Positions 6,081 through 32,800 of a DNA stretch of 64,000 nucleotides are shown here, in pieces (the first letter of the stretch is position 1; each line of letters begins with the position of its first letter). The position numbers were made by a program, and so were the translations under genes. Source of the stretch: Amphiscolops sp. MND2022. Its lineage: Eukaryota. The stretch lies in assembly GCA_964187785.1 (NCBI GenBank), contig OZ076409.1, positions 53,694,001-53,758,000 on the forward strand, in the 5' to 3' direction. The notes under the pieces are model-generated. The model did not search any database. It saw only the letters and a program-made list of their open reading frames with translations, and was not told the DNA's origin.

Positions 6081-7478
6081 GACTAACCTTGAACTGGATC
6101 AATCCCTCGCCATATCCATTGATCAATTCCCTTACACTAAAGTCTTTGCATACCACGACACCCAGAAATCTTCCTCCAGCTACAACAGACCAAAACGGAC
6201 CGAACTGGTTATTCCTTCACCAAGCGTTACACTGGACACGTCATCTGGTCTCTGAGCGACCACTGCACTCAGCGTTGCATACATTTGCCACAAAAACCAC
6301 CTGCAGCTCGTAGCGTAGCACCTGATCATACACGCGCTGCACTTGGAAGACCCTTGTGATTCAACGCAAAGAAGAGAGCAGCTGAGGCTGCTTCAAGCGC
6401 GTCAGACAGAACCAGTATGTGATATTACACACCTGTAATATAATCATTTACTTTCTCACTTGATTCCGTCGTGAGACAAGTGAGCTGAGTCATCAAGGAC
6501 TGAACTTGAAGTGGTTCAGTTGTTCAGTTGACTTGTGGAGCTTCGTCAAGAATGTCAAGGCTGCAGTTCCATTAATAGTAAGACTTAATCACATCAGGTA
6601 TTGAACTTTGGACAGATGTGCTTCTGTTCCTATCGCCTGTCACTTTCGTCAGTCGTATCCACATCTTTTTGAAATGGTGTCATAATTTCGTCCAAGAGAC
6701 AGTCAACTAGACTCAGGGTTCAGTCTTTTGCATCTAATGGCTCCGATAAAATGAGAAAGACTTCTTCTCGTAAATTGAACAGCAATTGCTCTTGTTCATG
6801 TTGCTGCGCACTCATCGAGATCTCAGCTTGTCTGGCAGTGATCAGCGGTTTATTTGGCATCTTCTGGTAACCTGCTAGCCACAAAACGTTTTTAAAAAGG
6901 GGATGGCCAATGATCAAGAACTGAAATAAAAAAATAAATATTACCAACTGTCGAGTTTATTTACATTTGCAACCAGTTATAGTAATGGTTCAGCATCAGG
7001 TATAATTAGCAACGAGACAAATAACGTCAGTACTTGTCAATATATAAAAATGTGCAACATTGAACACGTCATGTCGTCAATACAGTGGGGTAACAGGCAA
7101 GGCCTTCCAAAACTCGGAAAATGGTGGACAAAATCTCGGGAATACATGGACGAGTTTTTTTGTTCATAACTGAAACTCTCGAAAACGCATGGACGGAATC
7201 AATTTTTCGTAAACATAATCTGTCCATTCGTTTGCCACCAAGTGTGGCCTATTAAGTTGATAGAAATATTGAATATTTATCAAAAATGTGCGAGATATGC
7301 CTATTCAACTAAAAACAGTAATTTGCCGAATATCAGAAGTTTAATAGGCCAATCCAGGTTCTTTTTTCTCCCGAAATCTATTTGAATAATGATTATCATA
7401 CTTGTATCTTTTTTCATCAATAGACCTTATACCCAGCGACATTCTGTCTGATAAGGCTGTTTGATTTAATGACTGATG

Positions 7479-7680
7479 AGGTGAATAGTTGAATGAAGTT
7501 GTTTTTGTTGTAATTGTACAACTATTATACAATTTTTCGTTATGATTGAATAAACCTAAACTCGTATTTTATATCAATTAAGGTGAATAGTTGAGTAAAA
7601 CTGTTTTCGTAGCAATTGTACAACTATCGAACAATTTTTATGTTATGATTGAATAAACGTAAACCCATATTAAATATCAA
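7479..7680. repeat. ~102-bp tandem duplication (2 copies)
   Basis: aggtgaatagttga...ttatgattgaataaac...tatcaa starts at 7479 and again at 7581. Confidence 0.85.
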
Positions 7681-7981
7681 CCATAAGATGATTAGGAGAT
7701 TAGAAGATTAGAAGAACATCATAAGATCTTTCTGGGGGCTAGTCTTTGTAAACAATTTATTAATAAAATACTCATTACTTGTTGTTTGACTCAATTGCTC
7801 AAATCCAATGGCTTCGAATCATTTTGATGGCATTAAATTGTCAATTATTACCAATTCGTTCCACTACTGTTCTTTTGCCCCAAATCAAATCAAAATGATT
7901 CACAGGAGACTGATTCAAACAACAATTATCATAGAAAATATATTACAATTGTTATGGCAAGGGATACAAAAATAAATATAT

Positions 7982-9341
7982 TCAAAAATTAAACTGACTT
8001 CTGCAATTATTGGCTGCGGAACGACGATATTCGTCATTGCCATTTAAATTGTGCTCGAAACAATCGATAGATACTCGCACAGTTTTTAGCAGAAAATCGT
8101 TGTTAATTGAGAATTTTAGGTTTTTGATATTGTGGCAAAAAGTTTTAGGGAAGATTGGAGGGAGCATATCCCATTCTGCATTTTTGTGGAACATTTCTGT
8201 GTAAGGATCAATATGAAATTTGACTTGGTGTCCAGAACCCATCAAAAAGATATTCTTGGAAATTTCGTCACCCCAGCAAATGTCATGGTGGGATATCTCG
8301 ACCAAACGTTTCAGCGCGGACGCGTAATGTAACAATACCTTCTCCAATTTCAACGTGAAGACCGTGCTCCTGATGGTTATCGTAACGTCGTCACCTAATA
8401 ACAGAATGAGAATAAATGAGTTTGATTTCAATCAGTTATAATAAAGTATTAACTACTTGAGGAAGATTTATGAGACAAAGTTTCTATAAGCATGTAGGTT
8501 TTTCGAGAGGAAGTTCGTTACAAAAAACTTGTTTTCAGTTTTTTTTGTTTGGTTTTTTAGTTTAGTAGAGGTTAGACTAGTATTATTTAAATTAATCATA
8601 TACCTGCTGATACAGTACCTTTTTCGTAGGATACAATGTTCAGAAGTTCGTCTTTCTTGGCAAGAATTGCATTATATGCGGCAACATCAATTTTCGGTCT
8701 GGGAGAGTTTATAGTGGCTTCTGGTTCTGCATCTGTTCCTACTACCGTCTTTTTTTGCCGCGATGGTTGGACATCTTCGGGCTCCGAATCAGACTCCGAA
8801 GGCTGTCTGGATGGGTACAGTTCTTCGGAGGAATTTGTTCATCGTCGATTAGCTGGATGTCTTTTGTGTCCCCGTCGAAGAAAAGAGCCATATTTCGCTG
8901 GAATGGGTCATTCATGACAACATTACCCGACTTCAGCAACTTCGACTCCTCGTCATCATTTCTAACTTGTTCTAAACTAGGGATGTCCGCAGGTGATTTC
9001 TGGGACGTCCCGGTGAAAAATATTCTGTCCCCTAGTTGGCGCTTTCTTGGGTCGGGGATGTCAAAAACGGTTTCTGCTGGCTTCTTGGATTTTCGGGGAC
9101 CGCAGACATCTTGTAGTACTATACAATTTCTTACAGGCCAGCAATTTTGAGGTGTCTTGGAAGACACTTCAATTCTGTTTGATCCGAATCGCTTCACAAG
9201 TTTATCTGGTCAGTTGAGGTACTTTACTCGGATTCCAAAAGATCCTTCAAACCCAATGATGCGAGCATCTTCCCAAATTTTTGTTGCAGGATCCAAAACT
9301 TGAACTTGTTTGTTCATATCAAAAACACTGATGGAGTCCAT
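7982..9341 (-). pseudogene. Two-exon disrupted gene with an N-terminal Tudor/chromo-barrel-like segment
   Basis: ATG at 9341: MDSISVFDMNKQVQVLDPATKIWEDARIIGFEGSFGIRVKYLN* (stop where W is expected), continuing into ORF 8742-9197. GT..AG intron ~8603-8395, then an exon overlapping ORF 7982-8431. Confidence 0.45.
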
Positions 9342-9652
9342 TTCAATTATAAAATTAGTGTTTCACTTTTTCGAGAAATTTTTTTCATATTCGAGTTTTT
9401 TCAGTATTGCAATTGCCACCAATGTGTATCACGCCAATCAGGTTTGAGCAAATGAAATTGTTATCAAAACAAACGTTTATCAAGTGAGTTTGTTCGAACC
9501 CAATCGTTACATACAGATGTAATTTAATTGTCAGACGCGTTTTAAATGACAAAACACCACCAGACACTTTTGCACGAAATATCAAAAACGTAACACGAAA
9601 CTTTTATAACTTTTTTCAAACGCTTTGCCAACAAAGCAGACGCATTTTAAAA

Positions 9653-11960
9653 ATGGAAACGCTAGTGTAAAAACGCTAAAGTGTCAAAATACTTGAAAAA
9701 AACTCCAACTACTAGATGAATTTCCAATATATTTTTCGACGTACGACAATCAGCATGACAAAACACCCCGAGAAGCTTTTGCACGATTACACTAAAACAA
9801 TTGAAGGAAAAAGTTTTTTGGATGCTAAAATTTTGGATGTGTTTGCTGGGCATGTTATAAGGGAGAACTCTTGAAAACTGAAGAGCGCGATCGATATAGT
9901 AACGGAAGGAACTGGATTAAAACTCGAAGATTGTTTAATAAATAAGCAAAAAAACTTGCTTCGTTGCAGTTGGAATAATGCAAATAAGAATTATTCGTGG
10001 TTTACAAAGTAGGTTTCCATGGACACAATTGCGAAGAGGATACGTGTCCTACTTTTTCCAAATTACGCTGCAGCTAATTCCCGACTCACAATCTTTTGTC
10101 AATCAACTTTCAATCCCAAGCCCAGTGGAGCAGATTTTTCAACCTAAATCAGGTTTCAGTCAGAAGATGCATAAAATTCTCGCAACATTAGCAGCTACCG
10201 AAAAAAAAACGGATTCATGCTAAAGCGCAGAACTCTGTATCAATTTGAAGCCAAGGCTCTGCTGAATGGTGTTTTTTCAAACTGTTTATCGGACGAAAAA
10301 CTGAAGTCAGACATATTTATCTGTAATAAAACTGGTAGTTGGATAAATATGGTCAACACGCTGAAAAAAACTTTCCATATTGATGGACTGGGACAAAACA
10401 ACTAACTTCTGGCTATACGGCGATCAAAGTGATGTCGAAACCAATCATTTCAAAGTTTATATCCCTATTCAAACCAAAAAACATTTTCTCGGTATTCAAA
10501 ATTGATCTTGTACGTTGTATCAGAGTCATGACATTCATTCTGTTAAAAGGAAGAACTCATTGGCAAGGTCTGAAAGTTGATATTTGGGAAGATGGTGTTC
10601 AAATAGGAAAAAAGGATCAAACTCGAATGGGCTTCCATTTTCTCGAAGGAACATTTATCAGCAATCAGTCATCAGATGCACTCTTCTCCTCTGCTGTTTT
10701 CCAACGTATGTTCTGCTATTTTGACAACATTATCTGCTGAATCCCAATATCTAATTTAGCCCTAAGTTAGTTTTGCACTTTTTACAATACGGTATGTTTT
10801 GCTATTTTGACAAGATTCCCTGCTGAATCCCAATATCAATTTTAACTCTGAGTTAGCTTTGCATTTTTTACAATACGTATTTACAGGTCACGACGGTTGC
10901 TAGAACAAAATGTCGGGTACCTGGAACTAGGTGAGCAAGATTCCTCTTGACTTTACCAGCAGACGAAACAACTCCATGACGTAGGAGTCCTTTTAACACA
11001 CAGTGGAAATCAGTGATTCCTAAATCGCCTTTTCATCAGAACCTCTGTTGATCACATGGAGAGTGAAGATGAGAGTGAAGAAACTGCAGATGTCTCTTGG
11101 GAAAGACGACTCAGTTAAACCAGAAACTGTGCACGAAAAAAATAGGCATTGAGGTGATGTTCGCCTACCATTTCCAGTCGCCGTTCCTTCTGAAAGTTTG
11201 ACGTTTTTGCCAGACATCAGATGCGTTTGTCATGCAATAACAAGGTGTGTTGAGGGAGACATTAGAAAGTTCATGGAGTTGAACATTCTCCAATCCGAAG
11301 ATGACCCAGTTACAGTTGATTTTATTAGGGAAAAGTTTCAGCGCAATTTGACCGAGAGAGGTTGGAAAGAGCCGGGCTTCGAATTTGACATCGACAAACG
11401 CAACAAAAATTTTGCTCCCACTTCCCTTAGTGGCAGAGAAGCAATCACTGGCACTGCTGATATGTACGAACTTGCTGAGGCTGGTGTTCTGCATGAACTG
11501 CTTGAGGGAGTTTTTTCCGAGAACAAGACTATTGGAGCCTTGTCGGGCAAGTCACTAAATCAGCTTACAGTACTGATGAGGACTAGGAGAAAGTTCCAAG
11601 AACGGGACATTTCCGAATATATATAATGGTCAGAAATCCACTATCACCTTTCGATTGTACTGTTTGATGTGAAACTAGGTCTGACACCATACAAACTGAA
11701 AGCGTGCCTGATTCCCCAGCTGTTAGACGGAGGCTATATTGAATCACTTTTTAACCACCTGTGCCCAGGCCCCGAAAAATCAAATCATCATGTCCATAAA
11801 GATTTTCAGCAAAAAATCATGCGAGGGGAAGGACAGTTCGACACGTCGACCCGATGCTTCTCGAAATGTTGTTCACTTTCTGTTCTGGTCTCCGGTTTTT
11901 GACTTTGGAAGGCACCATCGACGAACAGCTCTCACTTTGCCATCAACGGCTATTTATTGA
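9653..11960 (+). pseudogene. Disrupted Transib/Chapaev/RAG1-like DDE transposase
   Basis: CVCWACY near the N-terminus, KVDIWEDG (first Asp), CHAITRCVE, SLSGREA, LTPYKLK..IPQLL..NHLCPGPEKSNH (Glu helix). Intron 10706-10886. Many frameshifts and stops. Confidence 0.55.
10706..10877. repeat. 86-bp tandem duplication forming most of the transposase intron
   Basis: gtatgtt[ct]tgctattttgacaa...tttttacaatacg at 10706 and 10792. Confidence 0.85.
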
Positions 11961-14251
11961 ACCCGTAGAGGTGAACCTGTCTTTGTTGGACTCCCTTGGA
12001 CCAATATAGAAAGCCATCAATTCCGTTGGAAAAGTCCGACAGAAGTCCCGCCTTTTCTTGGGTAAGGATTTTTGTCCTACCTATAAGCCCATGTCCAGTT
12101 TTTTTTGTTATGAAACCTAAGTAGTCCTAATTAGGCGGCGAATTATAGTTGGATAAACCGACAAAATAGTGTGGGTTTTGTGCCTTTCTTGTGATTCCGA
12201 AAAAAGTGTATGTGATCAAATAAATGTTTGCCTTGAGATTTGCTTAATGTACACGTTGATAACTATTAGTCCTAAGTAACTCGGATGAATTACTTCCTCA
12301 AAACAGCGACAGATTTCAAGTAGTGGTTAGTGGTTACTTCGTGCGTCGTTCCGTCGTTCTGCCGCTCGTTCTCTCTTGGTAAACAGTTTCGCTTCTCTGC
12401 GCCGCTGTTGGTGCAGCCTTGGGTAGCCAGTGGCTGGTATTGTGTGTGGTCGCCGTTGGCTGGTATTACTTGCCACAGATGTGGGTTGCCGGTGAGGGCC
12501 GCGCAGTCAACAACTGTGGCAATTAGTGAGTAGATTGAGATTTGAATTCTCTCTGGCGGAGAAAGAAATCCAGTCTTAATCTACTTACATTTATGTTTTC
12601 AACTTATTATTTGCAATTAGTTTTTCGCCTAACAGTGAGCACTGAATGATGTAATTACGTACCTTTTCAGCACGCTCGTAGCAAATGAAACTGAATACAG
12701 TAGTCATATTATTAAAAGCAACAAAAGGCAAATTTCAAAATCGAATATCTACCAAAAATCAGCGACTTTTGAAAAGCGATAAGGGTAAAGGTTTCTAGGA
12801 TTTTTATGTAGTTTACAAATTGAGGTTTATCTGACTTTTGATTTAGTTTTGATGAAAATTGTCTGAACATTTTAGGTTCCATTAACCCCCTGATTTAACT
12901 GAAGCCCCTGATATGTTTTGATTGAGGAATTACTCTAAAATCTCAGAGAAAATACGCTGTAAAAGTAGGTTTTTTCGAAAATACTAATCTTTTAAAAATA
13001 TCAAAACTGTACATGCAAAATCGTCTTAGAATTATACGGCAATAAGCACGTTCGGCAAATGGAAGGACATTCTTAGAAACTTTTTGTTACATATTCGAAG
13101 TTCGGTTTATAACCAATTGTTGTCACAGAACTAAGTAATATACCGTTTGCTTCAGTATCGAGATTCTTTCTGCATGGAAAATTCAATGAAAAGCAACGAA
13201 TTCAACATGAAAACCAAAATGGAAAACTCTTGCAGCCGCTGAGTGTCTCGAAAAAGTAATCAGAAAAGCGGGGGGATAATTCTAGAGCAAGCAGCTTTGA
13301 ATACGCTTCTCTCCAGACACTTCAAGTTGCCACGCATTTACGTAGTTTTCTAAAATGGCACAGATCTTATTAGTGCAACGACGTCGTGTGAAACCTTGCC
13401 ACAAGTGACAGAAGTTCTGGCCAAAGGAAAATGCGGAAAAAGAAAACTAAATGAACCATGTCGAACAAGTTACGTTTTATGACACTTGGCCAGTTGTCGA
13501 CTTACGTTTCTATCCGTTGACTAAATCTTGAAAAGTATCGAACCTTCAACAATTTCGGAGTCTTTTGCGTTCAAACCAGGGCCAGACATCCCATCAACTA
13601 CTGTTCGTGATCATCGCAAAAGTTTCCTTCTTCTAAGAAATCATGAACTACAAAACACAACTTCAGCTATAATTCCGGTACTTCACAAACGACGAGAGTT
13701 GCTGAAGAAGCGTGGAAAAGAAAAAATTGGATGACGCTCAGGAAGAACACGACGAATCATCCTCAGAGTCATTGGACTGAGAATAATTTGATAATCATAA
13801 ATGATCAAAGTTGAAAACGTTGATTCAAACAACATTAAAGTATTTTTATCTGTTGTTTTTATGGTCACACTTTAATTGAGACATTCGAACTGTTCTAATA
13901 AAGTTCAAAATATAAACGTAGCAAAACGTAGTAGCGCAAAATACTAAACAAAAGATAGAAAAGTCAGAATAAAAATCTTTCAAAGACTAAGACATGAAAT
14001 TCACATAATTCTAAAGCATTACAGTAAACTTCGTCTGAATTCACTCCTTGGGGACTGCAAAAAATTTTGAAATTAAAACAAGTACTGAAATACTTCGTTG
14101 AAAACAATTTTCAATTTTTAATAATAATATACAAAAATACAATAAAATATAATATTATTATAGATGTTTAGAACTTGTAAAGCATTCTATTTTATCTCGA
14201 AATTGGTTTTCAACGAACTAATCTACAAAGAGTCCACAAAGTGTTTCTATC

Positions 14252-17200
14252 TCAAGTTTCTACCAAGTTTTTGTCAACAATTTGACATAATTGATTCAAT
14301 GATATCTTCCTGTTTGGGAAATTGACAGATATGTACCGGTTGATAGTTTGCACGAACTTTCGTCGTTTGTTTCTGGATCGGCTGTCATTTTTGGAATGGA
14401 AGCTGAAGACATTCAGTGCTTTGGCCAGAAACTCCCATATCAGCAGCTTGCAGTTCTCAATGGTACTCTCTAGTAACATCTTTGTCATTAACGATAAGAA
14501 ATGTGGGAAACATTTCTCCAGAGGCTCATCATTCTCCCGTTCCCTCTGGTAAATAGTCAACGCCGTGTCTTAAATTATGCACAAGCATTAGTTAAACTGT
14601 ATTGAACACAAAGATGGATTAAAGTCCGATTTTTTAAAAGTAATAAATCAATCCAACTGTTTTCTCAAGAAGAATGAATTTTTGATTTTTTTGTTTTTTA
14701 ACTTTTATCTCTAACAAACATCTGAAAAACAACATTATATGAAAACTGAATTTCATTTCTTTACCTGCTCGTCTTGAATATGTTGTATATTTGAAAATTT
14801 GAAATGAAATGACAGTTTCGATGCCTTCTCGATACATCGGTGCCAACTTTTGATATCAGTGAATTTTGATATAGTTGAAAACGTATTAGTGAAAAAATTA
14901 TAAATACCTAGTTCACATATGGTGATAAAATTGAATTCCACACGGCCATGCTGTCCGCGCAGGTTCTGACGATATGTATCATGCCTGCTGGCATGAGTAA
15001 TGACTCGCCGCCTGTTATTGTCACCTTAAACACTTGACTTTGGAGGTGGGCGTCACTTGGTAGGAAAACATTATATTTTGTTGTCAATGCACCAATTCTT
15101 GAAAAATTCTTGGTTTCGAACTGTTCCGGGAGTCATGAAAAACTCTTTTTTACCAGAAGAAGATGGTATAAGACGCTTGTATCTGTGTCGTCAACATGCC
15201 AAGGTGTAATGGACTCTTTTTGACCAAGGAGAACATAGCAGTTTTTCTCCAGCTCAAAGTCAAACAAATGGGACAAGGAAAGTTCTTTAATGGACTTTGG
15301 TACTGCGAAATGCAGGTTCTTCGAGAGATTAGAGTTGAGATCGAGGACATTCATTGGACCGCTCATAGCTCCGAACTCAATTGCGTTTACAAAATCATTG
15401 CCAGACAGTGTTAAACAGAGGATTTTCTGCAGCTGAAATAGACATGTGTTGGGAATGATAACGGAATGCACTTAAAGGACCTCGTCTTTTGATTTTAATA
15501 AATTAAAACTCTTAATAGTTTTTAATATTCCATTGCCATTGGTGAAATTACAATGATGAACCCAAAAACGTACACTTACAGGATTGTACATTCGGACAGA
15601 TAATTGTATATCTTCTCCGTATAAGCAATCTTCGAAAACGTTTCTCCGAGCTCCAAGTCAATGTTGGGCAATTTTATGCCATCCATATGGCCTCGAACTA
15701 AGCAGTCTTTTTTCCGCCGCAGCTTCTCCTGAATTTCGCTGCTGGTAACAGTGGTGCATCACACTCTCATCTCGGAAGCGGAATAATCTCTAATTACATT
15801 TAACAACCCATGATGCTCTGCTTCATCCACAAATGCAACCAGAGGACCTTCTGCACATCTGCTGCAGATTGAAATCTTTAGTCTTTTTCAACGTTCTCGT
15901 TAAAGTTTTTATTGAAATGATTGGTGGACGTTTTTCAGATATTTTTGATAAGTATCAGTGGAATCGCTTGGCAAGTAGTAAAATTGGTGATTACTAAATT
16001 TCGAAGTAAAACAACAGGATTTTATCGTACCTTGGGAAGCGTGCATGTCTACTTCTTCACTTTCGTCTTTTTCACCGTTCTCTCCGTAGAGGGCCTCTTC
16101 GTGGCTGTCGGAATCTGGAACAAAAAGTGTCAATACAATGATGAAATTTTCATTGAAATGATTGGTGGACGTTTTTCGGACTTTTTCGATAAGTATCAGT
16201 GGAATCGTTTGTCAAGTAGTAAAATTGGTGTTCAGTATAATTGAAATTTAAACAACAGGACTTTATCGTACCTTGGGAAGCGTGCATGTCTACTTCTTCA
16301 CTTTCGCCTTCTTAACCGTTCTCTCCCTGGAGGGCCTCTTCGCTGCTGTCATAATCGTTGCTGTCGGAGAAATTTAAGGAGTATGTTTGATTTAAGGAGT
16401 TTATCGCACCCTTAGGAAGGAACATAAAAGTCTATTTCTACTTCATTTTCGTCTTCTTCACGGTTCTCTTTCCGGAGAGCTTCTTCGTTGGTGTCGGAAT
16501 CTGAAACAAAAAATGTCAAAATCATGATACAGGTTTTGAAATGATTGGTGGTATCAGTGGAATCGTTTGGCAAGTAGCAAAATTGGTACTTAGTATGAAT
16601 GATATAAGTAAAACAACAGGATTTTTAAAATACCTTGGGGGACGTGAATGTCTACTTCTCCTTCACTTTCGTCTTCTTCACAATTCTCCCCTACGGAGCC
16701 TCTTCGTTGCTGCTGGAATCTGAAACCAACATTGTCAAAATTATGACAAAGGTATCGAATTGATAAGTGGATATTTTTTGGATAATTTCGATAAGTATCA
16801 GTGGAATCGTTTGGTAAGTAGCAAAATTGGTGTTTAGTATAATTTATATTAGTAAAAGAAGAGGATTTTTTTAGTACCTTGGGGGGGGGGAGGGAACGTG
16901 AATGTCTACTTCTCCTTCACTTTTGCTTCTTCACCGTTCTCTCCCTGCAGAGCCTTTTCGTCAATATCATGATAAAGATATTGAAATGATTGGTGGATGT
17001 TTTTTGGATAGTATCGATAAGTATCAGTGGAATTGTTTAGCAAGTAGCCAAATTGGTTTTTAGTATAATTTATATTAGTAAAAGAACAGGATTTTTTTAG
17101 TACCTTGGGGGGGGGGCGGGTAACGTGAATGTTTACTTCTCCTATACTTTTGTCTTCTTTTCTGTTCTCTCCCTGTAGAGCTTCTTCGTTGCTGCTGGAA

Positions 17201-18560
17201 TCTGAAACCAACATTGTCAAAATCATGATAAAGTTAATGAAATGATAAGTGGATGTTTTTTGGATAACTTCGATAAGTATCAGTGGAATCGTTTGGCAAG
17301 TAACAAAATTGGTATTTAGTATAATTGATATAAGTAAAACAACAGGGTTTTCCTAGTACCTTGGAGAGGGGGGGTTTGGTTTGAACGTGAATGTCTACTT
17401 CTCCTTCATTTCCGTCTTCTTCACCGTTCTCTCCCTGCAGAGCCTCTTCGTTGCTGTCAGAATCTGAAACAAAAATTGTCAATATCATGATAAAGGTATT
17501 GAAAGGATTGGTGGATGTTTTTGGATTATTTCGATATGTAGCAGTGGAATCGTTTGGCAAGTAGCAAAATTGGTGTTTAGTATAAATGATAAAAGAAAAA
17601 CAACAGGATTTTTATAGTACCTTGAGGGGGACCGTGAATGTTTACTGCTTCATTTCCGTCTTCTTCGCCGTTCTCTCCCCGCAGAGCCTCTTCGTTGCTG
17701 TCGGAATCTGAAACAAAAATTGTCAATATCGCGATAAAGTTTTGATTGAAATGATTGGTGGACGTTTTTCGAACGTTTTCAATTATTATCAGTGGACACG
17801 TTTGACAAGTAGTAAAATTGGTATTTAGTAAGATTGATATAAGTAAAATAACAGGGTTTTATTGTACTTGGGGGACCTGCCTTTCTTCTTCTCCTTCTAC
17901 ACTTTCGCATTCTTCAACGGTCTGTCCCTCTTCATTGCTGTCGGACTCTGATTCTATGTAAACTCGTCGGTACCGACGTGACATCCTTCTCTGATCTCTT
18001 CTCCTTCTCTAAGCTATTCTCGCTTGGTATTGTGGACGCTCGATCTTCTTCTTTGGCGACCCTATGATCTTCATCAGGTCTTTGATGAGATGCGAATACC
18101 CTTTCCCTTCCCGATGTCTTCTTTCCAACCACTTATACTCCCCTGGTTCGTTGTCTTTGGGCTTTGTTTGAAGAAAAACGGATTCTCCTTAGAGGTGAAA
18201 AAAATTGTACTTTTGCTTCAGGCCATGATAAGCAGAACTTTCATTGCACAATTTTTGAATGTTTTCCGTGTTGATTCCAGCAAATTTCCAGGGTACCAAC
18301 CCTCCCTGTGTAACACAAACACTTTCAGAGTGCAAGTTCTTCCGAGGGAGTGTTGAGCAGTTCCATGGTAGCTAAAGAAAGGTCATCCGTCTTTCTCACC
18401 ACATCCACAAAAACGACAAACAAAACTTGCCCGGCTGTAAATCTTTTGTACGATGCAGGTGAACTCCAGATGGTGCTCTTCGAGAGGTCTTTTCCTTGGT
18501 GCCCCGTCTTTGTACATGTGCCTCTGGCACGCAACTTTTTCGCTTAAATTTCCCTGGCAT
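14252..18560 (-). pseudogene. Multi-exon JmjC-domain (KDM2/KDM7-like) histone demethylase gene, frameshifted
   Basis: ITPWHVDDTDTSVLYHLL..GKKEFF..GESLLMPAGMIHIVRTCADSMA (HxD...H triad). Phase-1 intron 14907-14569 joins to TALTIYQRE..CFPHF. Upstream acidic repeat exons and an ATG at ~18560; the 5' extent is inferred. Confidence 0.75.
15905..17950 (-). repeat. Tandem array of ~8 units (~240-260 bp), each an acidic mini-exon plus intron
   Basis: Unit marker ttgaaatgattggtgga at ~15912, 16153, 16537, 16981, 17499, 17746, with variants between. On - each unit has ttgtttcAG|ATTCCGACAGC...CAAG|GTAC. Confidence 0.9.
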
Positions 18561-18821
18561 TCTGAAGCAAATATTTTGATTATTATTGGTGATAAATATG
18601 TTTAAAATAAATTCGACATTTGAAATTCAATTTCAGATATCTGAATATATCAAGATGATAACGCCATTTCAAACTCGGAAACGCATGGGCAATCTGAAAC
18701 TCAGAAATACATGGGCTTTTCATTGCAAACTTGGAAACGGATGGGCAAAACTTCAATTCACTTTATCATAAAATGAATTGAAGTTTTGAAGAAACTATTT
18801 ATAGGTGAAGAATAATTGAAG

Positions 18822-18920
18822 AAATAAGGAATAAAAAGCGGAGTATGAAATAATTTAAGCTAATTGGCATGATGCCAGTTAGCTTAAGTTATTTCATACT
18901 TCTGGTTTTGTCCCTTATTT
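18822..18920. repeat. ~100-bp near-perfect palindrome
   Basis: gagtatgaaataatttaagctaattggcat-g-atgccagttagcttaagttatttcatactt, centre 18871; the arms extend to aaataagg/ccttattt. Confidence 0.9.
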
Positions 18921-19276
18921 TTAACCGAAAAATGAAGTTTCGCACGTCATAGAGTAATTATCACCACAGTTGATTTTGAAAGCGTCCTTAAATGAGCTCA
19001 TCTTTATCCATATCTGAATAGCACAACCGCAAAACTATTAACAGCGTTATGTACTACTGTTTTCAATAATCATATAATTCAGTATCACAAATAAATAATT
19101 ATAATATATGTAATATATTTTTAAGAAAAACACCCTTTTTCTTCTTTTATGAAAAACCACAGTTGATTGACAAAGCGGCTTTGAATTAGTTCAAATTTTG
19201 ATGGATCAAGAAGTGGATTGAGCATTTACCAATCAATCCAAACACTCGCTAAAAAACAGTCTCATTTTACATAACG

Positions 19277-21010
19277 TTGATTCCTCCTCAACATGAGAAA
19301 GCTCCCCTTACACTGTCCTGGGGACTAGCGCGGCGGAATTTTCTGTTTGAAAGCTTTTCGACTTCATTTAAACCGAATGAAAGCAACTTCGCATACTACA
19401 AGAGTACTCCATTGGATCAATCTAGTTTCACACAACAGTTGTATGGATCACCCAGTGTGTCGTCTAAAAGTTGGCCAAGTTTCACAAAGTTGAACAATGG
19501 ATATTTTCACAAATCTTAATTATAGAGGATGTGAATTATGAAGTAAGCCCTTCAGACGTCTCGATTCTGGTACAAGCTCAACTTGCTGCAAATAAGATGA
19601 CCCCTCGGTTAATCAACACTGCAAATCAACTGAGCCACACTCCAAGTGACAGTACGTCAAATCAACTGAGTCACACTCCGAGTGACAGTACGACGAATCA
19701 AAAGTGTCACACTCTGAGTGACAGTACGACGAATCAACTGAGCCACACTCCAAATGACATCATGGCAACCCAACTGAGCCGTTCCTCCAGTGACATCGCG
19801 GCAAGTCAGCTGAGACATTCTTGCAGCGAGACCTTGGCAACCATCGAAAGGCGCCAACAGGAGATAGCGAACAAGCGGAAACCTAATCATTATGATGAGG
19901 AAAACCATGGCCCGAAAATGATGTATTCCTACGAATTATGAAAAAAAAATTGCGAGAAACTACCCCAGTGCATCTAACACTGTGCCTAACTGCTAAAGCG
20001 CGTCTCTTGTCAGATCTGTATGACATAATGACGTAATTCAATTTCGCAAAATCTTTAACCACCATTGACAAAACCATTTTATTTGGGGACCTCGGTGCTT
20101 GTTTGCTGGAATTTTCTATTCCAAAGTGTAGAGATTGCAAAATTTTGAGCATCACAACCCTTGCCGTTTTACAAATGGTCTTTCAAATTCAGCGCAATAG
20201 AAGTTCTAACTCAAGTGACTTGTTAGTTGTGCAAACTGAAGGTGAAGCTGGGTACTTGGACAGCTTCAGAATTCCTCACATTGATGGAGAAGCAATGTTA
20301 ATATATTTTGAAGCTGTACGACCGTACTTTAAGAAACCTGAAGGCATCGACCAAAAAAAGGTTCATGCAGCAGTCATCCAGTCAAGGGATACCACGATAT
20401 TACGTCATGACGGAGTCATACTTTGTCAACAGCTGGGCACGAACAAATTCGAAGAGTGAAACGTGAGAAATCGAATTGAACAGATAACGAATCAAATTTT
20501 GTTTGATGAGAATTACTTTAATCAGTTTGATAAGTATTGGTTGAGAGTAACCATAAGCAAACATCACAAGTTGAAATACTAAAAAAATCGTCGTGCCTGC
20601 ATTCGCAGTGTTCCTTTTTTTCCTTAATTATCTGCGTGTTCTAGTTTTCTGAGTTGACAAGAAACCCAACCGAACGTGAAATGGGCCGATTGGAAAAAAC
20701 TGTCAAACTAAAGACACTTTCAAAATGTTCAGCAGAAGAAGACTTTTGGTCTGAATTATACCTGATGATGGAAGTCAAAAACCACTTGAGGCCCAGCAGA
20801 CATTATGATGACAGAACTTTCATGAAAGTAGTCGGAAAAAGAATTCAAGCACTTAGGCATCAAAAAGCAGACATTAGGGCGGCCGAATTCAAGTGACACT
20901 ACCCTACAGCATTACCTGACCCTGCGAAAGAAAGAGAGAGAATAATCGATTTTGCGAACATGGTCATTTGGCCAAATTTCACCAATGTACAGAGAGTCAT
21001 GGATGTCTGG
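19277..21010 (+). pseudogene. Disrupted gene with a 36-bp coding repeat and a tyrosine-recombinase-like segment
   Basis: ORF 20103-20459: LLEFSIPKCRDCKILSIT (box I-like), VVQTEGEAG, IYFEAVRP, TTILRH (box II-like). Catalytic Tyr not found. Confidence 0.4.
19621..19825 (+). repeat. 36-bp coding minisatellite (NQLSHTPSDST x ~5-6)
   Basis: aatcaactgagccacactccaagtgacagtacg repeats inside ORF 19471-19941. Confidence 0.9.
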
Positions 21011-21089
21011 AATGTCTGGATGTATCTTCTACACTGTCGTGTGTATCAAGATGTCGACAATGTTCGCGCAAAAAGGCATTTATTCCAAA

Positions 21090-23735
21090 TCTAGAATGGA
21101 GACTTTGCAATACCCCTTTACTTCCTAATTGACTTGAAAGATAGATGCGAAAACCAATTGTGGTCAGGGGTCTGCGATGTTGTCTATGGTAAATTACCTG
21201 CCGACTACTGTGCCGACAATAGTTTTTCTATAATAAGCCCTCACCAGCCCACGTTTGTCTCAGCAAGCAAAAAAGGTTGCTGCATTATCGATTTTTGCAC
21301 CACTGAACAAATTTGCTCTTATCTGGTATGCAATGCACGAGTGATCGATGATATCAAATTTTTCTCTGGTGCTCCAGAGCAAGGTCATTGGCCTGTTCTA
21401 TTTGATATAGATATTGTGAAAAATGATACTGTGAAAAATGATAATCCAAAACGGTGTGTGCTAAACTACAAAATGGCAAATTGGGAAGAAATAAATATAC
21501 AACTGGAAGTTTTTATGGTGGAAAACATGGATAGCATGATAACGGAAGCACCTACGAAAGCTCTCCTAACTTTTATGGCCTAGTGAGAGGAGTTTGTGAA
21601 AATTCGATTTCACGGAAAACACTTTGTAATTATTCCAAACCATACTGGAGCATTAAATTGACTCACTTATCAAAAAAATTGAAAGAAGCAGGCAAAAAAT
21701 ACAGACTCCAATGTAACCTGAAAAACAAAAACATTGTTGAAGTGGCAAAAATCGATTTCAAAAAGGAAATGAAAACAAATATTACTTGTTGGACGCAAAA
21801 TGGCATCATACAATTGAATGGGGGAAACTCAAAAACATTTTTGGATATTATCCGCAAGTTCAATGGTTCAATATAGGAGTACTTCGTCACAAGGGTCAGA
21901 CACTGGAAAAAAGTTGCGATAAAGCTGCGCTCTTTCAACGTATTTCCTTCGATGGCGCACACCTTACTGGTAAACAATTTCACCACGCTTTTTATGAAAA
22001 AACAAAAGTTGAAGTGAAAGAGAAGTTAGCTCACACCGTTGGGAATTATTACAAGGAGGAGGCCAAGAATGATCTAAACAAGCGTATAACAATGACTGAA
22101 CTTAAACAAGCCACAAAAATGAAGACAAACCACAACGGCGTGAATCCTTATGGAATTCACCCTAAGCTAAGAAAGAAATTCAAATTTAACACCATTAGCA
22201 TATGTTTGCACTTGGTAAACAGTGCATTCTTCATGGGAATTTGGCCATTTGATAAAACCATATTCTCAATTTTAAAAAATCTGGCAAAACTGATTATTCT
22301 AATGCATCTTCATGGAGAACTTTTCCACTTACTTCCCATTTAGATAGATAGAAGACTAAGATCATCAGATATCCTCAACATTGATGAACAACAAATTGGT
22401 TTTCAGCCAGGCAAATCAATTTTGCACTACTTATACAAACTATATCATGATATCTTAGCAATCAAAAATTTACCAATAGCAAAAGTATATGATCTAGAGA
22501 AAGCTTTTGACTCCGTAGATCAAACTCTTTTGCTAAGTAAGTCAATAAACAGTGGCTTAAATGGTCCAATGGTAGCTACTATAAAATCTTTTTTATCGAA
22601 TCGGGAAGTCAGTATTCAAGTCAATGACTATATCGACATGTCATTTGTCGCTCTCAATGGTTTACCGCAGGGGGCTGTACTGTCACCACTTTTATTTATA
22701 TTCTATATGAAGGGCTTCCTCCAAGATGCAGACTTAACATATAAGTATGCAGATGACAGTACGTCTCTTTCAAGGAGAGAAAACCTAAGCTTATCCTTAG
22801 AAAAGGCGGAAAACTATACATACAAATGGAGGCAGGTGCTGAATAAAGACAAAAGTGAACATATTAATTTCTGAAAAGAAGTATTTCAGTCCGACTATAT
22901 ATTTGTTGAGAGAAGTAAAACACTTGGCCTATGGTTTGAACGAGATTTGAATTTCAAAACACATGCTGCCAGTATCTCCGCTCCAATGGTTATATTCTGG
23001 AAAGAAACTAGTATACTTAGAACGCAAGGATTAAATCCATTTTACGCTGTACGTATCTTTGATTTATATGTGAAACTACGTGTCACGTACTGTATGACTA
23101 TTTGGTTTCATCAATATATGACATCTCTGGACAAGATGCTGTGGAGTGTTCACATATCGATCATTGGGATAAAAAACTACCAAGTATCGAAACACGTAGT
23201 TTGTGTTTTAGGTAACATTTGGCCTCCTCTATTCTACACTAATCAAGTATTAATGTTTCTACATTCAACTGCTTGAAGTTCAGATATTCTAAACCCACGT
23301 AATTTAGCAATCATACCCCAACATAATATTATGGTGAGATTATTTTTGGTACACAAACTTTCAATTGTAAATCGTGATCCTGATGAAATTAAGGCAATAT
23401 ACATACAATATGCTAGACAATCCTCAGTCAGTACTTTTACGAAGGAGGTGGATGAGTATTGCAGGCACTTATGGCAACGAGAAAAAAATCAAGGTCCTAT
23501 GTACTCAAATTACTCAGGGCTTAAAATAAGAAGCAGCATCAAGAAAATGCTAGCACCATATCCTAGGAAAACTTCTGTCAAAACGCTACGTGTTCTACTG
23601 AATGATTTTGAAGTACGCGAAGTTCAGAAGTAATAAGAGGAAGCCGATATTTGTTTTATTGTAGAGTTGTCGATGATACTGCACTTTTCTTATTTTCCTG
23701 TGTCTCATACCAAGAACACCGAAGGAGTTTCATTA
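21090..23735 (+). pseudogene. Decayed LINE (APE endonuclease + RT + C-terminal Cys/His remnant)
   Basis: PTF..CIIDF..GHWPVLFDI, KPYWSIKL, DLEKAFDSV, GLPQGAVLSPLLFIFY, YADD, CRVVDDT..FLFSC. Confidence 0.85.
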
Positions 23736-23738
23736 AGG

Positions 23739-24125
23739 GGGCATGGTAATAAGTTCGCATAAGTTCGAATTTTAATTTCGAATGGACTAAAAGTTCGAAT
23801 TTTCCAAAAACCGGAACAGGTTCGAATCACTGTGTTCGAATTTTGAACTTAGTATAAAACGTGCCTCTGATTTTTCCCCATTTCTTCTATTGCCCCGCGG
23901 CCCCTTAGGGCTGCTCATGTTCCCATCTTGCTAAGCGATGTCGAACACGAGCAAAGACCTAGCGGGAACGGAGATTGCGAAGCGATCGTAGTGGGAGCTG
24001 GTGCTTGCGTCGGTGAGGGCGAGCGTGCATACACCGGATATGCCCCCACATTAGAGGGAGAAAGTACTGAAGATTTTGTGAGACATTTACGGAAGGTGAT
24101 ATTTTTTCTCGAAAAATCTGAATAA
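23739..24125 (+). mobile_element. Truncated MITE (gttcgaa sub-repeat type, core A)
   Basis: Near-identical to the 5' part of 26786-27288; right end lost. Confidence 0.75.
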
Positions 24126-26785: not shown

Positions 26786-27288
26786 GGGCACGGTAATAAG
26801 TTCGAACGCATAAGTTCGAATTTTATTTTCGAATGGACTAAATTCGAATTTTCTAAAAACCGGAACAAGTTCGAATCACTGTGTTCGAATTTTGAACAAA
26901 CGGCCGTAAGTATAAAACGTACCTCTGATATTTCCCCAATTCATCTAGTGCCCCGCGGCCCCTTGGGGCCGCTTATGTTCCCATCTTGCTAAGCGAGGTC
27001 GAACAGGAGCAAAGACTTAGCGGGAACGGAGATCGCGAAGCGATCGTAGTGGGAGCTGGTCTTTGTGACGGTGAGGGCGAGCCTGCATACACCGGATTTG
27101 CCCCACATTAGAAAAGAAAAGTATTGAAAACTTTCTGAGACATTTACGAAAGGTAATATTTTATTCTTGACACACCGGATATGCCCGATATGAAAATTCG
27201 AACTTGGTGTCTCGAAACCATTCCTATTCGAACTTATTCCACTAGTTCACATTCGAACTTAGTAAATCGAACTTATTGCCCGAAGCCC
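26786..27288 (+). mobile_element. MITE, GGG..CCC ends, gttcgaa sub-repeats, core A
   Basis: TIR gggcacggtaataagttcg / cgaacttattgcccgaagccc; TSD gatcaaca/gatcaacg. Confidence 0.85.
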
Positions 27289-27364: not shown

Positions 27365-27893
27365 GGGAGTGTACGCCTTTGATCTAATTCATTAGGTCTA
27401 ATGGAATTAGATCTAACTTTCAGATCTAATTTAGATCTAACTTTACGTCTAACTTTCAGATCTAATTATATCTAAAATACTTAGGTCTAACCCCTTTATG
27501 ATCTAATATGTGTTCTGAAAGCCAAAATATAATGTGAGACATATGCGATGTTTGCACGGTCGCCCTCACCGTAGCAAAGACCAGCTCCCACTTCGATCGC
27601 TTCGCGATCTCCGTTCCAGCTAGGTCTTTGCTCCTGTTCGACTTCGCTTAGCAAGATGGGAGTATAAGCAGCCCCAAGGGGCCGCGGGGCACCAGAGGAA
27701 ATAGGGACATATCCGAGGCACGTTTTATACTTTATATCACTTTATAGTTTTAGATCCTCATTGATTTATTGTTTTTTTCAAATTAGATCAAATTAGAAGA
27801 GATTTTTAGACCTGAATATTTAGATCAATTTATTTAGATCTCAGTTTTGCCCCCTCTCTTAGATCTATTTCATTAGACCTGATTCCACGCACC
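27365..27893 (-). mobile_element. MITE, gatcta sub-repeats, core A (reverse)
   Basis: TSD tgttctag/tgttctgg; gatctaa repeats on the left and ttagatc repeats on the right. Confidence 0.8.
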
Positions 27894-29664: not shown

Positions 29665-29817
29665 TTGAAAGGTACTCGCATTTTACTCCTTCTGTGCGTT
29701 AGGCGACCTGCCTGAAAGGGGCTGTGTTCACTCGAATTATTCATAGCTCATTAAAATCTGTTTGTTACTTTGAGTGTCCTGCCTGCAAAGGGCTGAGCAC
29801 ACTCAATTAATCTTGTA

Positions 29818-32800
29818 ATGTCTACGGCTGATACTTCGAAAAGACAAATCGCCTCGAGAAAGGCTCACATGGGTATTGTTACCCGCAAAAGGAATGAATT
29901 TGACTCCATAACGGTTAAATCCATCGATGATGTAACATCTGAAGACAAAATTTTGGTAGAAGCTGCTCTTGAATCACTCCTGGAGAAATCTAAAATACTC
30001 GATCAGATTAACTTAGAATTTTTGAATGATACAGAAAACACTGAGGAAGCGTTAGAGGCAGAATTAGTTATTCAAGATGAAAATAGTACTAAATTGAAGG
30101 GTCTGATAAAATCCATGCAAAAATGGATCTCGGAACATACCGTAGATGCCACAGATGATGAAACGTCTTCGATTAGTTCCTCTCACCCTAGTCATCGAGA
30201 GAACAATGTCCGTTTACCAAGAATTGAGCTACCGACATTTGATGGACAATACAAAGACTGGAAAACTTTCTTTGACATGTTCAAAGGGACAGTCCATAAT
30301 CAACCTACTCTACCAAAAGTTCAAAAACTCTATTACTTGAAAGGCGAAGCCAAGCGCGTACTGGCACATTTGCCAACTACTGAGGCTAATTACGACGTAG
30401 CTCGGAATTTTCTTCAAGATCGATACGACAATCAGTTTCTCATTACAAAAGCTCACCTGAGCAAGATTTTCAAAATTGATCCAATGAAGAAAGAATGTCG
30501 GGATAGTCTTGGGAAGCTCATTGGCGTTTTCAATGAAAATGAGATGGCTTTAAATGCTTTGGGCATTGATACGAAAGCTTCTGATTTCATATGGATCCAT
30601 GTTTTGTCCGAAAAACTTGATTCGGAAACTGCTAAAGAGTGGCAACTTACGAACGTTGACGGCAAGTTGCAAAGTATGGACTCATTGAGAAAATTTCTTG
30701 AACTTCGAGCCAGAGCTCTTGAAGCTTCTGGTGGAACATCTGAACAAAAACGAGAACCGATGAAAGAAAATAGAAACGGGAATGAGAAACCGGATGATGC
30801 TTTCCAGAGTTACCAGTCAACGTCTGTTTCTTGTGCTTTCTGTAAACATTCGCACCGGATATATGTCTGTTCTAAATTGTTAGCATTACCTGTTGCGGAA
30901 AAGTATGAGCAAATCAAAAAACTTAGATTGTGTTTCAATTGTTTGAAAGATGGTCACGGCATCAAAGCTTGCAAGTCAAAGTCCTCATGTCAGAAATGCA
31001 AAAAGAAGCATCATAGTTTACTACATCGCGATGAGTTCAATTCTCCCAAGTTCAGTAGCAATGGCGTCACCTCTGATGAACCCAATTTCATTGGATATCA
31101 AGGGGAAGCAAACTATACTACTTTGTTACCTACTGCCATTGTGTCCGTTGTCAACTCGCATAACGAACTTGTACAATGCCGCGCCTTGTTAGATTGCGGC
31201 TCGCAACTTAGTTTCGTTACACAACGTTTAGCGAAGCAACTTAACCTGAACCAAACGAAAGTGCAGTTGAATCTGAGTGGAATTGGTGGAAAGGTAAATG
31301 ATGTAAAAGCTGGTCGTCTTGATCTAGTTTTGAAAGCAAATTCTAAGCAAGTGAATGTGTCAGCTTTTGTTTTGAAGCAGCTAACTAATTGTATTCCAAG
31401 CAGATCTGTTGTGGTCTCTGACATTCCTGATCGATTTCCATTGGTTGATCCAGACTTTCACCTTGCCAAATCAATTGATATCATTCTCGGTGCAGATGTC
31501 TACCAAGAGTTGATTGAAAATCAACGTGAGGAATTGTCGCCCGGATTGTTCTTGAGGAAGACTATCTTTGGTTGGATAATTCTCGGCAAGCAACCAGGAA
31601 AAACTGACGGGCTTGCTCTTTGTCATTTTTCTCTCGACGAAACTGTCCGAAAATTTTGGGAGATCAAAAGTTTACCCCAATCAAAATTGCTAAGCGATGA
31701 AGAAAATGCTTGTGAAGAACACTTCAAAGAAACAACAACAGTCGTTGATAATCGTTTCGTAGTGAAATTGCCCTTCAAAAAAGATGTTGATTTAGGTGAT
31801 AGTTTCGCCCAAGCTAAGCAACGCTTTGACTCACTAGAACGCCGTTTGAACAGAGATCCTAATCTCAGACAAAAATATGCTGCTTTCATTAATGAATGCC
31901 TTGCTCTTGACCATATGGAAATCATACCAGAAAGTGAAATTGTCAAACCCCCCAATGAAGTTTATTATCTGGCACATCACTGCGTATTCAAAGAGGATTC
32001 CACCAACAACCAAATTAAGGGTAGTCTTCGATGGTTCGGCTAAGACCTCTAATGGCATTTCACTGAATGACATTTTGATGATAGGACCTGTCGTCCAAAA
32101 TGATTTATTCACCATTCTAAATCGATTCCGTTTTCAAGTGATCGCACTGTCGGCGGACATGGCCAAAATGTATAGACAAGTGGAACTTGATAAACATGAT
32201 CAAGACTTCCATCGCCTTCTTTGGCGAAACACGAAAGAAGACGTCATTCAACACTTGCGAATGAAACGAGTAACATATGGAATCTCGTCTTCTGCGTTTC
32301 ATTCGACTCGATGCTTGAAAGAAATTGCAACCCGGACTGAGCTGCCTGCAGTGGCTGATGCTCTCAATTAATGCTTTTATGTGGATGATTTCCTGGGCGG
32401 TGCCAATAGTATTACCGAAGCACGGCAAATTGTTAAAGACTTGTGTCAACAGTTGTCTGATTTCGGTTTCGAACTGCGGAAGTGGACTTCCAGTCACCCA
32501 GAGCTCACTGCGGAGCTGCCACTTGAGCTAAGGGGAACGTCCGACCAACTTGAACTTTTTTCCAAAGAGTACAAAACCAAAGCTCTTGGTATATGTTGGA
32601 AACCTAATGCGGACACTTTCGTTTTTTCGATTGAATTGTTTCATATCGAGCAACACACTAAGCGTGCTCTTTTATCTGATTCCTCCAAAGTCTTCGATCC
32701 TATGGGTTGGATTGGACCTGTCATCATTGTTTTCAAGTGTCTAATACAGCAAACTTGGGTTGAAGGTCTCTCTTGGGACGAGGAACTTCCCATTCCAATT

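Follow-up and report, generated by a model that had tools for sequence, protein, structure and literature searches.

Among DNA transposons, the CMCT clade comprises EnSpm/CACTA, Mirage, Chapaev, Transib, Plavaka and ESTA as well as Lanisha, lineages with 5′-CA..TG-3′ termini, a target site duplication (TSD) of 2–5 bp, a RAG1-like transposase and two common zinc motifs (Kojima 2025, PMC12730594; here and below, publications are cited for the part of their text drawn on in this work). A TSD of 5 bp is typical of Transibs (Kapitonov & Koonin 2015, PMC4411706). Giant Plavaka elements of 17.4–19.1 kb, with SET and 2-oxoglutarate oxygenase genes and tandem repeats, are found in the red alga Bostrychia, and an anti-silencing role has been proposed (bioRxiv 10.1101/2025.02.11.637652). 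Other precedents with chromatin-related or anti-silencing cargo are the SET-bearing HarbingerS and MuDR elements of Phytophthora, TET/JBP-bearing fungal transposons, and VANDAL of Arabidopsis with its VANC protein (cited in PMC12730594 and bioRxiv 10.1101/2025.02.11.637652). Here we report that a stretch of 64,000 nucleotides of the genome of Amphiscolops sp. MND2022 (contig OZ076409.1, positions 53,694,001 to 53,758,000; hereafter “the window”) holds, at positions 7078–21187 of its forward strand, a decayed and right-truncated copy of a DNA transposon that exists in dozens of copies (family F1), with its left 14 kb preserved. This element belongs to a real, recently active and apparently undescribed lineage of giant cut-and-paste transposons. 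Taken as a whole, the evidence makes it reasonably probable that the window holds a dead copy of a 17–19 kb transposon whose own transposase likely moves it, and whose JmjC, SET and two accessory genes likely keep its chromatin permissive.

Ends, copy number and recent movement

The 1.07-Gb assembly was searched with DNA probes taken from the left end, the JmjC gene and the tyrosine-recombinase (YR) region, and each of the three scored in at least about 40 other places (the best of 231, 58 and 55 candidates, respectively). Among the best 40 of the 231 left-end candidates, 35 begin at probe base 27–29, i.e. at window positions 7076–7078. Ten other loci from this search were compared with 7078–21187: six are collinear with it, a seventh is so up to a tandem array that has grown greatly, another is rearranged, and the remaining two are short. 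All ten further loci from the JmjC and YR-region searches are collinear with the window copy, and all extend beyond 21187. When 16 F1 loci were extended to 30 kb, 15 had both ends; these full F1 copies are 16,767–19,541 bp long, and each of the 15 has a 23-bp terminal inverted repeat (TIR) and an exact 2-bp TSD, nine different dinucleotides being represented (the chance of a 2-bp duplication is 0.069 per copy). The family TIR is CATTACAGTGGGGTAACCGGCAA (23 bp), with 1 mismatch between the two ends in an older subfamily; the left TIR of the window copy (7078–7100, forward strand) departs from it at 2 positions and is flanked by the dinucleotide GT.

Protein searches of the genome revealed six further families, F2 (18.5 kb), F3 (15.2–18.9 kb), F4 (17.8 kb), F5 (17.1 kb), F7 (19.4 kb) and F6, whose ends were not found. 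A 2-bp TSD is present in all eight F2–F5 copies with both ends, among 12 loci looked at, and likewise in F7, and the ends read CATTAC..GTAATG in six families (F1–F5 and F7). The TIR pattern has 174 exact matches in the genome versus 0 for a control. Among the 100 of these 174 matches that were listed, there are 20 inward-facing pairs 18–23 kb apart, and five pairs only 0.26–1.6 kb apart, which represent short TIR-only derivatives; the single short pair checked, a 1,633-bp derivative, also has a 2-bp duplication. The TIRs and TSDs of dispersed copies, together with a conserved DDE triad on an RNase H fold (see below), place the element among the cut-and-paste DDE (TIR) transposons. Because of the TIRs, the variable 2-bp duplications and the TIR-only derivatives, a DDE enzyme is the best candidate for its mobiliser. 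The lineage was recently active: copies of F4 differ at 10–11 of 17,832 bases (99.94% identical), and in a young F1 subfamily with long open frames the two copies compared differ by 0–3 changes per exon.

The window copy shares 80–88% DNA identity with its nearest copies and lacks the final ~3.5–3.7 kb of the full element. At 21187, inside the SET domain, its sequence switches to a long interspersed nuclear element (LINE) that is no part of the transposon. This LINE (21188–23633, forward strand, right limit approximate) starts at the break, is 5′-truncated and broken, and has an RVT_1 match at 22344–22874 (E 4.4e-19); the missing right end of the transposon was not found within 143 kb downstream of 21187. 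With a young copy as reference, 7 of the 11 exons tested have in-frame stops, nonsynonymous divergence (dN) is 0.05–0.12 and several exons appear as more than one high-scoring segment pair. The ratio of nonsynonymous to synonymous divergence (dN/dS), 0.21–0.88, together with the stops, is as expected for decay after insertion. Of the four broken genes, JmjC alone scores, weakly (E 0.003), in a Pfam search of the window itself.

A first-pass annotation, made from the letters of the window, had proposed one large mobile unit with four broken genes arranged as two divergent pairs. The genes are indeed present at those places, and the collinear copies with their TIRs and 2-bp TSDs provide the common ends of such a unit. 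Single-copy or unlinked genes had been named as what would speak against it, an objection that falls away because the genes are both multi-copy and linked. Loss of the right end at the LINE was also correctly seen, with the junction at 21187 and copies elsewhere continuing past it. Some limits needed adjustment: the proposed left terminus is a real end but begins at 7078, not 7081, and the broken element reaches 21187 rather than 21010. The list of four genes was right as far as it went, but overlooked the SET domain cut by the LINE and a BRCT exon (~13156–13772), and the ~244-bp array at 15.9–17.95 kb and an open reading frame (ORF) at 17.95–18.58 kb are parts of the JmjC gene.

The transposase

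The broken transposase gene of the window copy lies on the forward strand, with exons 1 and 2 at 9755–12061 (GT-AG intron at about 10706–10886) and, beyond a putative ~1.1-kb intron at 12062–13155, exon 3 with a BRCT domain at 13156–13772 (a younger copy matches Pfam BRCT_2 at E 2.8e-6); the three exons of the F1 gene were delimited by GT-AG motifs. The second Asp of the window transposase has become Asn, and a stop follows. Among ten young F1 copies, all nine tested exons are open in one and the first transposase exon is broken in nine, at an A-run where examined, which could be shared decay, a homopolymer assembly error or a later start. An alternative frame for this exon, suggested by the window copy, was dropped, as the other one is favoured by the F4 protein and by two younger copies. 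The BRCT domain is fused to the transposase in a single ORF in intron-less relatives (P0004–P0006), and the fusion is found in 41 of 43 alignment rows. Ser/Thr-Gly is the phosphate-binding motif of BRCA1-type BRCT repeats; by eye, the BRCT domain of the element is without it.

The intact F4 transposase (1,012 aa) was modelled with a predicted local distance difference test score (pLDDT) of 84. In a Foldseek search with this model, all rows listed at E ≤ 0.001 are RAG1, HzTransib or amphioxus RAG1L, and VIA aligns the model with RAG1 at Z 18.8 (414 residues, 3.9 Å), with HzTransib at Z 16.4 and with BRCT at Z 11.8. The transposase is predicted to fold like RAG1 and Transib. The catalytic triad, whose positions were assigned by motif and not by superposed residues, is kept throughout (D315 in 20/20 rows, D395 in 34/34, E690 in 43/43). 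A C(2)C zinc motif between D395 and D465 is present in 1 of 34 rows, and an H(3-4)H motif 45 to 7 residues before E690 in 0 of 43. The place of these motifs may be taken by D465-x-x-H468 and H694, which are invariant, and by H684, which is nearly so.

The transposase has many relatives but no family name. At least 368 protein clusters were matched by its profile at E ≤ 0.001, 108 of them at ≤ 1e-30, and the ten clusters looked up are unnamed or called “hypothetical”. Pfam gave no transposase family for any of the transposases and no RAG1 match among the 25 of 28 families listed (47 members); PDB sequence searches gave nothing, or a weak BRCT match alone; and ESM Atlas returned solely unnamed eukaryotic clusters (0.76). 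Outside this genome, homologues were found at 0 loci in one metagenome scan and on three contigs of 2–3.6 kb, too short to show cargo, in another. Viral contigs gave one marginal match (E 9e-4), and phages none.

The likeness to Transib, RAG1 and ProtoRAG (PDB 6xny, 6pqx, 6b40) thus consists in a predicted catalytic fold of ~415 residues (Z 16–19), the DDE triad and the CA...TG ends. The element differs from Transib and RAG1 in its 2-bp rather than 5-bp TSD, in an identity of 10–14%, in the C-terminal BRCT domain and in its size of 15–19 kb with four genes. The ends of Transibs are of the CAC type, whereas those described here are CATTAC. Because the TSD is 2 bp and not 5 bp, and the zinc motifs are absent, the element is not a Transib. 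Of the earlier label “Transib/RAG1-like”, a DDE enzyme of RAG1/Transib fold (Z 18.8 and 16.4) can be retained, but Transib membership cannot. With the CMCT clade as described, the element shares CA..TG termini, a TSD within 2–5 bp and a RAG1-like transposase, but it is without both zinc motifs common to the lineages of that clade. Its TSD may be any dinucleotide, unlike the TA of ESTA, and its CATTAC ends, as well as the absence of zinc motifs, set it apart from Plavaka, with TGT..ACA ends in PlavakaA and CATCA..TGATG ends in PlavakaB. In short, the element works like CMCT/Transib transposons without qualifying as Transib, Plavaka or ESTA, in a comparison that leaves aside Lanisha and the entries of Repbase.

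Genes carried by the element

The JmjC gene lies on the reverse strand. Its broken 3′ exons (14256–15863) include a catalytic core of KDM2A/PHF8/KDM7 type (14919–15447), and upstream of them are a tandem array (15903–17951), whose ~244-bp unit would consist of an intron and an 81–87-nt acidic mini-exon, and a putative first exon with a C2H2-like motif (17947–18582). The length of the mini-exon is a multiple of 3 in 24/24 units of three younger copies, versus 2/6 in the window. The C2H2 motif, recognised by eye in F1, is matched by zf-C2H2-type Pfam families, below cut-off, in F4, F5 and F7. JmjC of a young F1 copy is closest to KDM2A, PHF8 and KDM7 (E 3.4e-18 for KDM2A), and alignment to KDM2A indicates that it keeps the H-x-D...H iron ligands and the Thr/Lys that bind 2-oxoglutarate; H-x-D is kept in 9/9 families and relatives shown. 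A JmjC demethylase gene had been proposed at the outset, and all metal ligands are present in young copies. The gene has the sequence features of KDM2/KDM7(PHF8) JmjC demethylases, and demethylase activity is predicted.

The array of introns and acidic mini-exons has grown to more than 10 kb in the copy at C1:87.33–87.34 Mb. The same C2H2 and JmjC gene is also carried by other large multi-copy repeats (C12:43.89 Mb, C6:37.14 Mb, C11:16.34 Mb, C4:19.26 Mb, C8:8.575 Mb and C11:50.68 Mb), one pair of which is 99.86% identical over 20 kb. No RAG1-like transposase was found within 10–15 kb in these repeats, nor were their ends and mobiliser found. One of them has a SET domain of its own (E 7.5e-14) and, by eye, a YR-looking ORF. 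The YR-like ORF of the repeat G8 gave no alignment with the YR-SET profile (probability 0.2%), so that kinship of the two is not supported.

The YR-SET gene, divergent from the JmjC gene, is also broken in the window. Exon 1 (19274–20488, forward strand) encodes a low-complexity N-terminus with a 36-bp repeat (19622–19780), followed by half of the catalytic fold of a tyrosine recombinase, namely the N-terminal one. Exon 2 (20645–21187, forward strand) specifies a helical linker and, of the SETD8-like SET domain (matched by PF00856 at E 2.5e-8 in a young copy), just the first strands, with the cut at 21187. In F3 the gene is one ORF of 680 aa, and a phase-0 intron is predicted in F1. In the structure model (pLDDT 74), residues 1–171 align with YR catalytic domains (XerH Z 9.1, XerD 8.8, XerA 8.4, MrpR 8.3, Cre 7.4), with scores that are middling yet all on one fold, and over the first half of the YR fold only (XerD 114–238, XerH 178–304); the H-x-x-R...Y residues of XerD and XerH presumably lie beyond the aligned part. 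At the position of the presumed catalytic residue, F1 has Arg, F2–F6 have Leu or Met and the relative P0013 has Lys. ESM Atlas gave no match for the YR part. The YR is probably inactive. As to the SET part, its 14 best PDB sequence matches are all SETD8 (E ~1e-5), as are its best fold matches (Z 12.3), at about 22–25% identity. The RLxNHS motif reads NHS in F3, F4, F5 and F7, and Phe occupies the Phe/Tyr switch position, as in the aligned structure of the SETD8 Y334F mutant. With a SET fold in the model, RLxNHS and a C-terminal Tyr, this part is a predicted SETD8-like methyltransferase.

Gene A, called “Tudor-like” in the first-pass annotation (two exons, broken, 7985–9341, reverse strand), is kept in all 7 families. 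Its N-terminal 65 aa resemble a chromo-barrel or Tudor domain by eye only, with conserved Trp and aromatic positions; neither Pfam nor PDB sequence searches gave a match, and the Tudor fold is unconfirmed. The gene is tandemly duplicated in the F3 copy at C10:13.24 Mb. To the right of the SET gene, full F1 copies have a conserved ORF of ~80 aa without Pfam match, which is also present in two divergent copies.

A subterminal motif, AACTCGGAAA..ATGG, occurs at 7111–7149 (forward strand) in two copies, versus three at the same place in younger copies, and again in three copies at 18672–18744 (forward strand), in the promoter region from which the JmjC and YR-SET genes diverge. The repetition of a motif at 7.1 and 18.7 kb, pointed out earlier, is well beyond chance, with five matches in the window (7111, 7133, 18672, 18698 and 18728) versus 0.14 expected and 0 of 100 shuffles reaching five. 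Near the second site, a 99-bp near-perfect hairpin with 49-nt arms (18822–18920) overlaps a ~105-bp stretch (18767–18871) that is absent from other copies. In full F1 copies the left TIR and motif recur internally, ~2.2–2.4 kb inside the right end, two of these copies have a second right end 1.6–1.9 kb further out, and in the copy at C5:55.95–55.97 Mb most of the element is inverted relative to its left end.

Linkage and selection across seven families

Transposase, gene A, JmjC and SET are all present in F1–F7, in differing orders and orientations; the YR exon was matched in F1–F6 and recognised by eye in F7. Transposase cores have 35–79% identity to that of F4. The transposase tree intermingles the families with 27 database homologues (P0004 and F7 are identical) and unites F1 and F7 in one starred clade; the trees of SET and of gene A separate these two families from F2–F6. 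Between F4 and F5, dN/dS takes rough values of 0.04–0.16 in six of seven segments, with dS saturated in the seventh, and between F1 subfamilies it ranges from 0.09 to 0.67, with 21 of 22 values below 0.45. By these ratios the genes of the element are under purifying selection.

The nearest precedent for such a set of genes is the giant Plavaka of Bostrychia. The two are alike in size, in being of CMC type, in combining a transposase with three accessory genes, among them SET and 2-oxoglutarate oxygenase genes, and in their internal tandem repeats. As far as it is described, Bostrychia Plavaka differs in its transposase lineage, which retains the zinc motifs, in the joining of SET to a DNA methylase rather than to a YR half-domain, and in an oxygenase that is a weak ParB-linked match rather than a KDM2/PHF8-type JmjC. 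Moreover, the host here is an animal, and no BRCT domain is mentioned for Bostrychia in the text cited. HarbingerS and MuDR, the TET/JBP fungal transposons and VANDAL are comparable in having chromatin cargo, but with a single accessory activity, in other superfamilies and in non-animal hosts.

The literature searched, with Repbase, Repbase Reports and the Bostrychia Plavaka supplements outside the search, contains no description of this element, of the transposase-BRCT lineage or of a kit of JmjC and YR-SET genes in animals, nor of an animal DNA transposon with both a JmjC and a SET gene. The part of Arkhipova & Yushenova 2019 (PMC6431247) drawn on here has no passage on histone cargo, and the corresponding part of PMC8869645 merely names CryptonV.

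Mobilisation and possible function of the cargo

The transposase would bind the CATTAC ends, excise the element and insert it with a 2-nt stagger, and would also move short, internally deleted copies. The C2H2 finger and the probably dead YR half-domain would tether JmjC and SET to the DNA of the element, with the repeated motif of the left end and the common promoter as a possible site. The KDM2/PHF8-type JmjC would then erase a host methyl mark and SET would write another, with the result that the element escapes silencing. Enzymes of the KDM2/PHF8 clan act on H3K9me1/2, H3K27me2, H3K36me2 or H4K20me1. By analogy with the YR-fold regulator MrpR, which is inactive as a recombinase, the YR half-domain may most simply be seen as a DNA- or nucleosome-binding module. 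The cargo must be needed for something, since purifying selection acts on it in elements whose persistence depends entirely on movement, and we infer that its function is anti-silencing. Such self-directed anti-silencing is favoured over a steering of break repair, and the latter over regulation of non-histone targets.

The repair reading accepts the same element but has the cargo steer the repair of transposition breaks rather than silencing: donor sites would be biased to sister-chromatid repair by BRCT together with a SETD8-like methylase for H4K20, a demethylase for H4K20me/H3K36me and a reader of methyl-lysine, and excision would thereby become copy gain. Each of the confirmed domains is of a family that takes part in double-strand-break repair choice, and both the near-constant fusion of BRCT to the transposase (41/43 rows) and a SET domain nearest to SETD8, with the Phe of Y334F at its switch position, would suit this idea. 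We nevertheless hold it to be unlikely: the BRCT domain is, by eye, without the Ser/Thr-Gly motif, the JmjC clan is better known for acting on silencing-related marks, and the published precedents for such cargo have been interpreted as anti-silencing. Rather less probable still is that the cargo acts in trans, not on histones but on proteins of the element itself or on host targets, for instance by methylation or demethylation of the transposase, or in a self-limiting regulation. A writer and an eraser kept together would fit a switch of this kind, as would a SET domain as divergent as this one (about 22–25% identity to SETD8), but each of the two enzymes has a probable DNA-binding module fused to it (C2H2 or the YR half-fold), which suggests action on chromatin.

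A different mobiliser was implied when the YR-like gene was compared, in the first-pass annotation, with the captains of Starships. Starships and Cryptons are mobilised by a YR and are without DDE-type TIR and TSD. They share a YR-derived domain with the present element, and the alignment of residues 1–171 with XerH, XerD, XerA, MrpR and Cre at Z 7–9, as well as the Arg that F1 keeps at the presumed catalytic position, might be quoted for a YR-driven element. However, the alignment ends before the C-terminal part of the fold, so far short of a complete R-K-H-R-H/W-Y domain, and Leu or Met in F2–F6 and Lys in P0013 leave the Arg position unconserved. The element is not Starship-like because its YR is probably dead, and its mobility is tied to TIRs and TSDs that point to the DDE enzyme. 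The TIRs and the 2-bp TSDs of varying sequence, which all copies with both ends have, and the short TIR-only derivatives argue equally against a chance nest of separate transposons, as does the linkage of the genes across seven families. Mobilisation by the YR-like gene, or a mere nest, is largely refuted and strikes us as very improbable.

Several observations weigh against a self-moved element with anti-silencing cargo as set out above. All gene models were built from GT-AG motifs and homology, and the first transposase exon is open in just 3 of the 15 full F1 copies (1/10 young). The SET domain of F1 reads NYS, with Tyr replacing the His of RLxNHS. None of the six branches of the JmjC tree is starred (0/6), and other large repeats, in which this transposase is absent, have the same JmjC gene too. 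The F4–F5 dS is near saturation, which makes the corresponding ratios rough. The repeated motif is restricted to F1, with none in the F2, F3 and F4 copies tested, and is therefore no general docking site, and the histone substrates of JmjC and SET are guessed from distant homologues.

It is tempting to go one step further and to regard these families as an unnamed animal lineage at the level of a superfamily, sister to Transib/RAG1, zinc-motif-free, BRCT-fused, with a 2-bp TSD and still active, which, across deep divergence, would have kept a complete histone writer-eraser-reader kit and DNA-targeting modules to rewrite chromatin on its own copies. We offer this fuller proposal tentatively, as a possibility that we would not yet bet on.

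Other features of the window

Beyond the transposon and the adjoining LINE, the window contains an open 748-aa ORF at 29797–32043 for a gag-protease of BEL/Pao type (DUF1759, DUF1758), a kind of element that points to an animal host. Dispersed ~200-bp repeats, in both orientations, and satellite-like arrays of ~140 bp lie at 23851–24046, 26909–27104, 27540–27731, 35318–35513 and 48.5–59.8 kb.

Significance

Anti-silencing by factors that transposons encode has been described for VANDAL in plants, and suggested in the case of fungi, oomycetes and red algae (PMC12730594, bioRxiv 10.1101/2025.02.11.637652). As selection has conserved the kit described here in seven families, some of them with near-identical recent copies, natural intact genes are at hand for a direct test of the idea. 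The RAG1/Transib fold family becomes wider with this transposase, which seems to act in the absence of zinc motifs and by a 2-nt stagger; this has a bearing on the evolution of target geometry and of the zinc domains of RAG1. The elements also add many SET and JmjC copies to the genome of their host (at least 150 matches each), which gene annotation would misread as expansions of host families.

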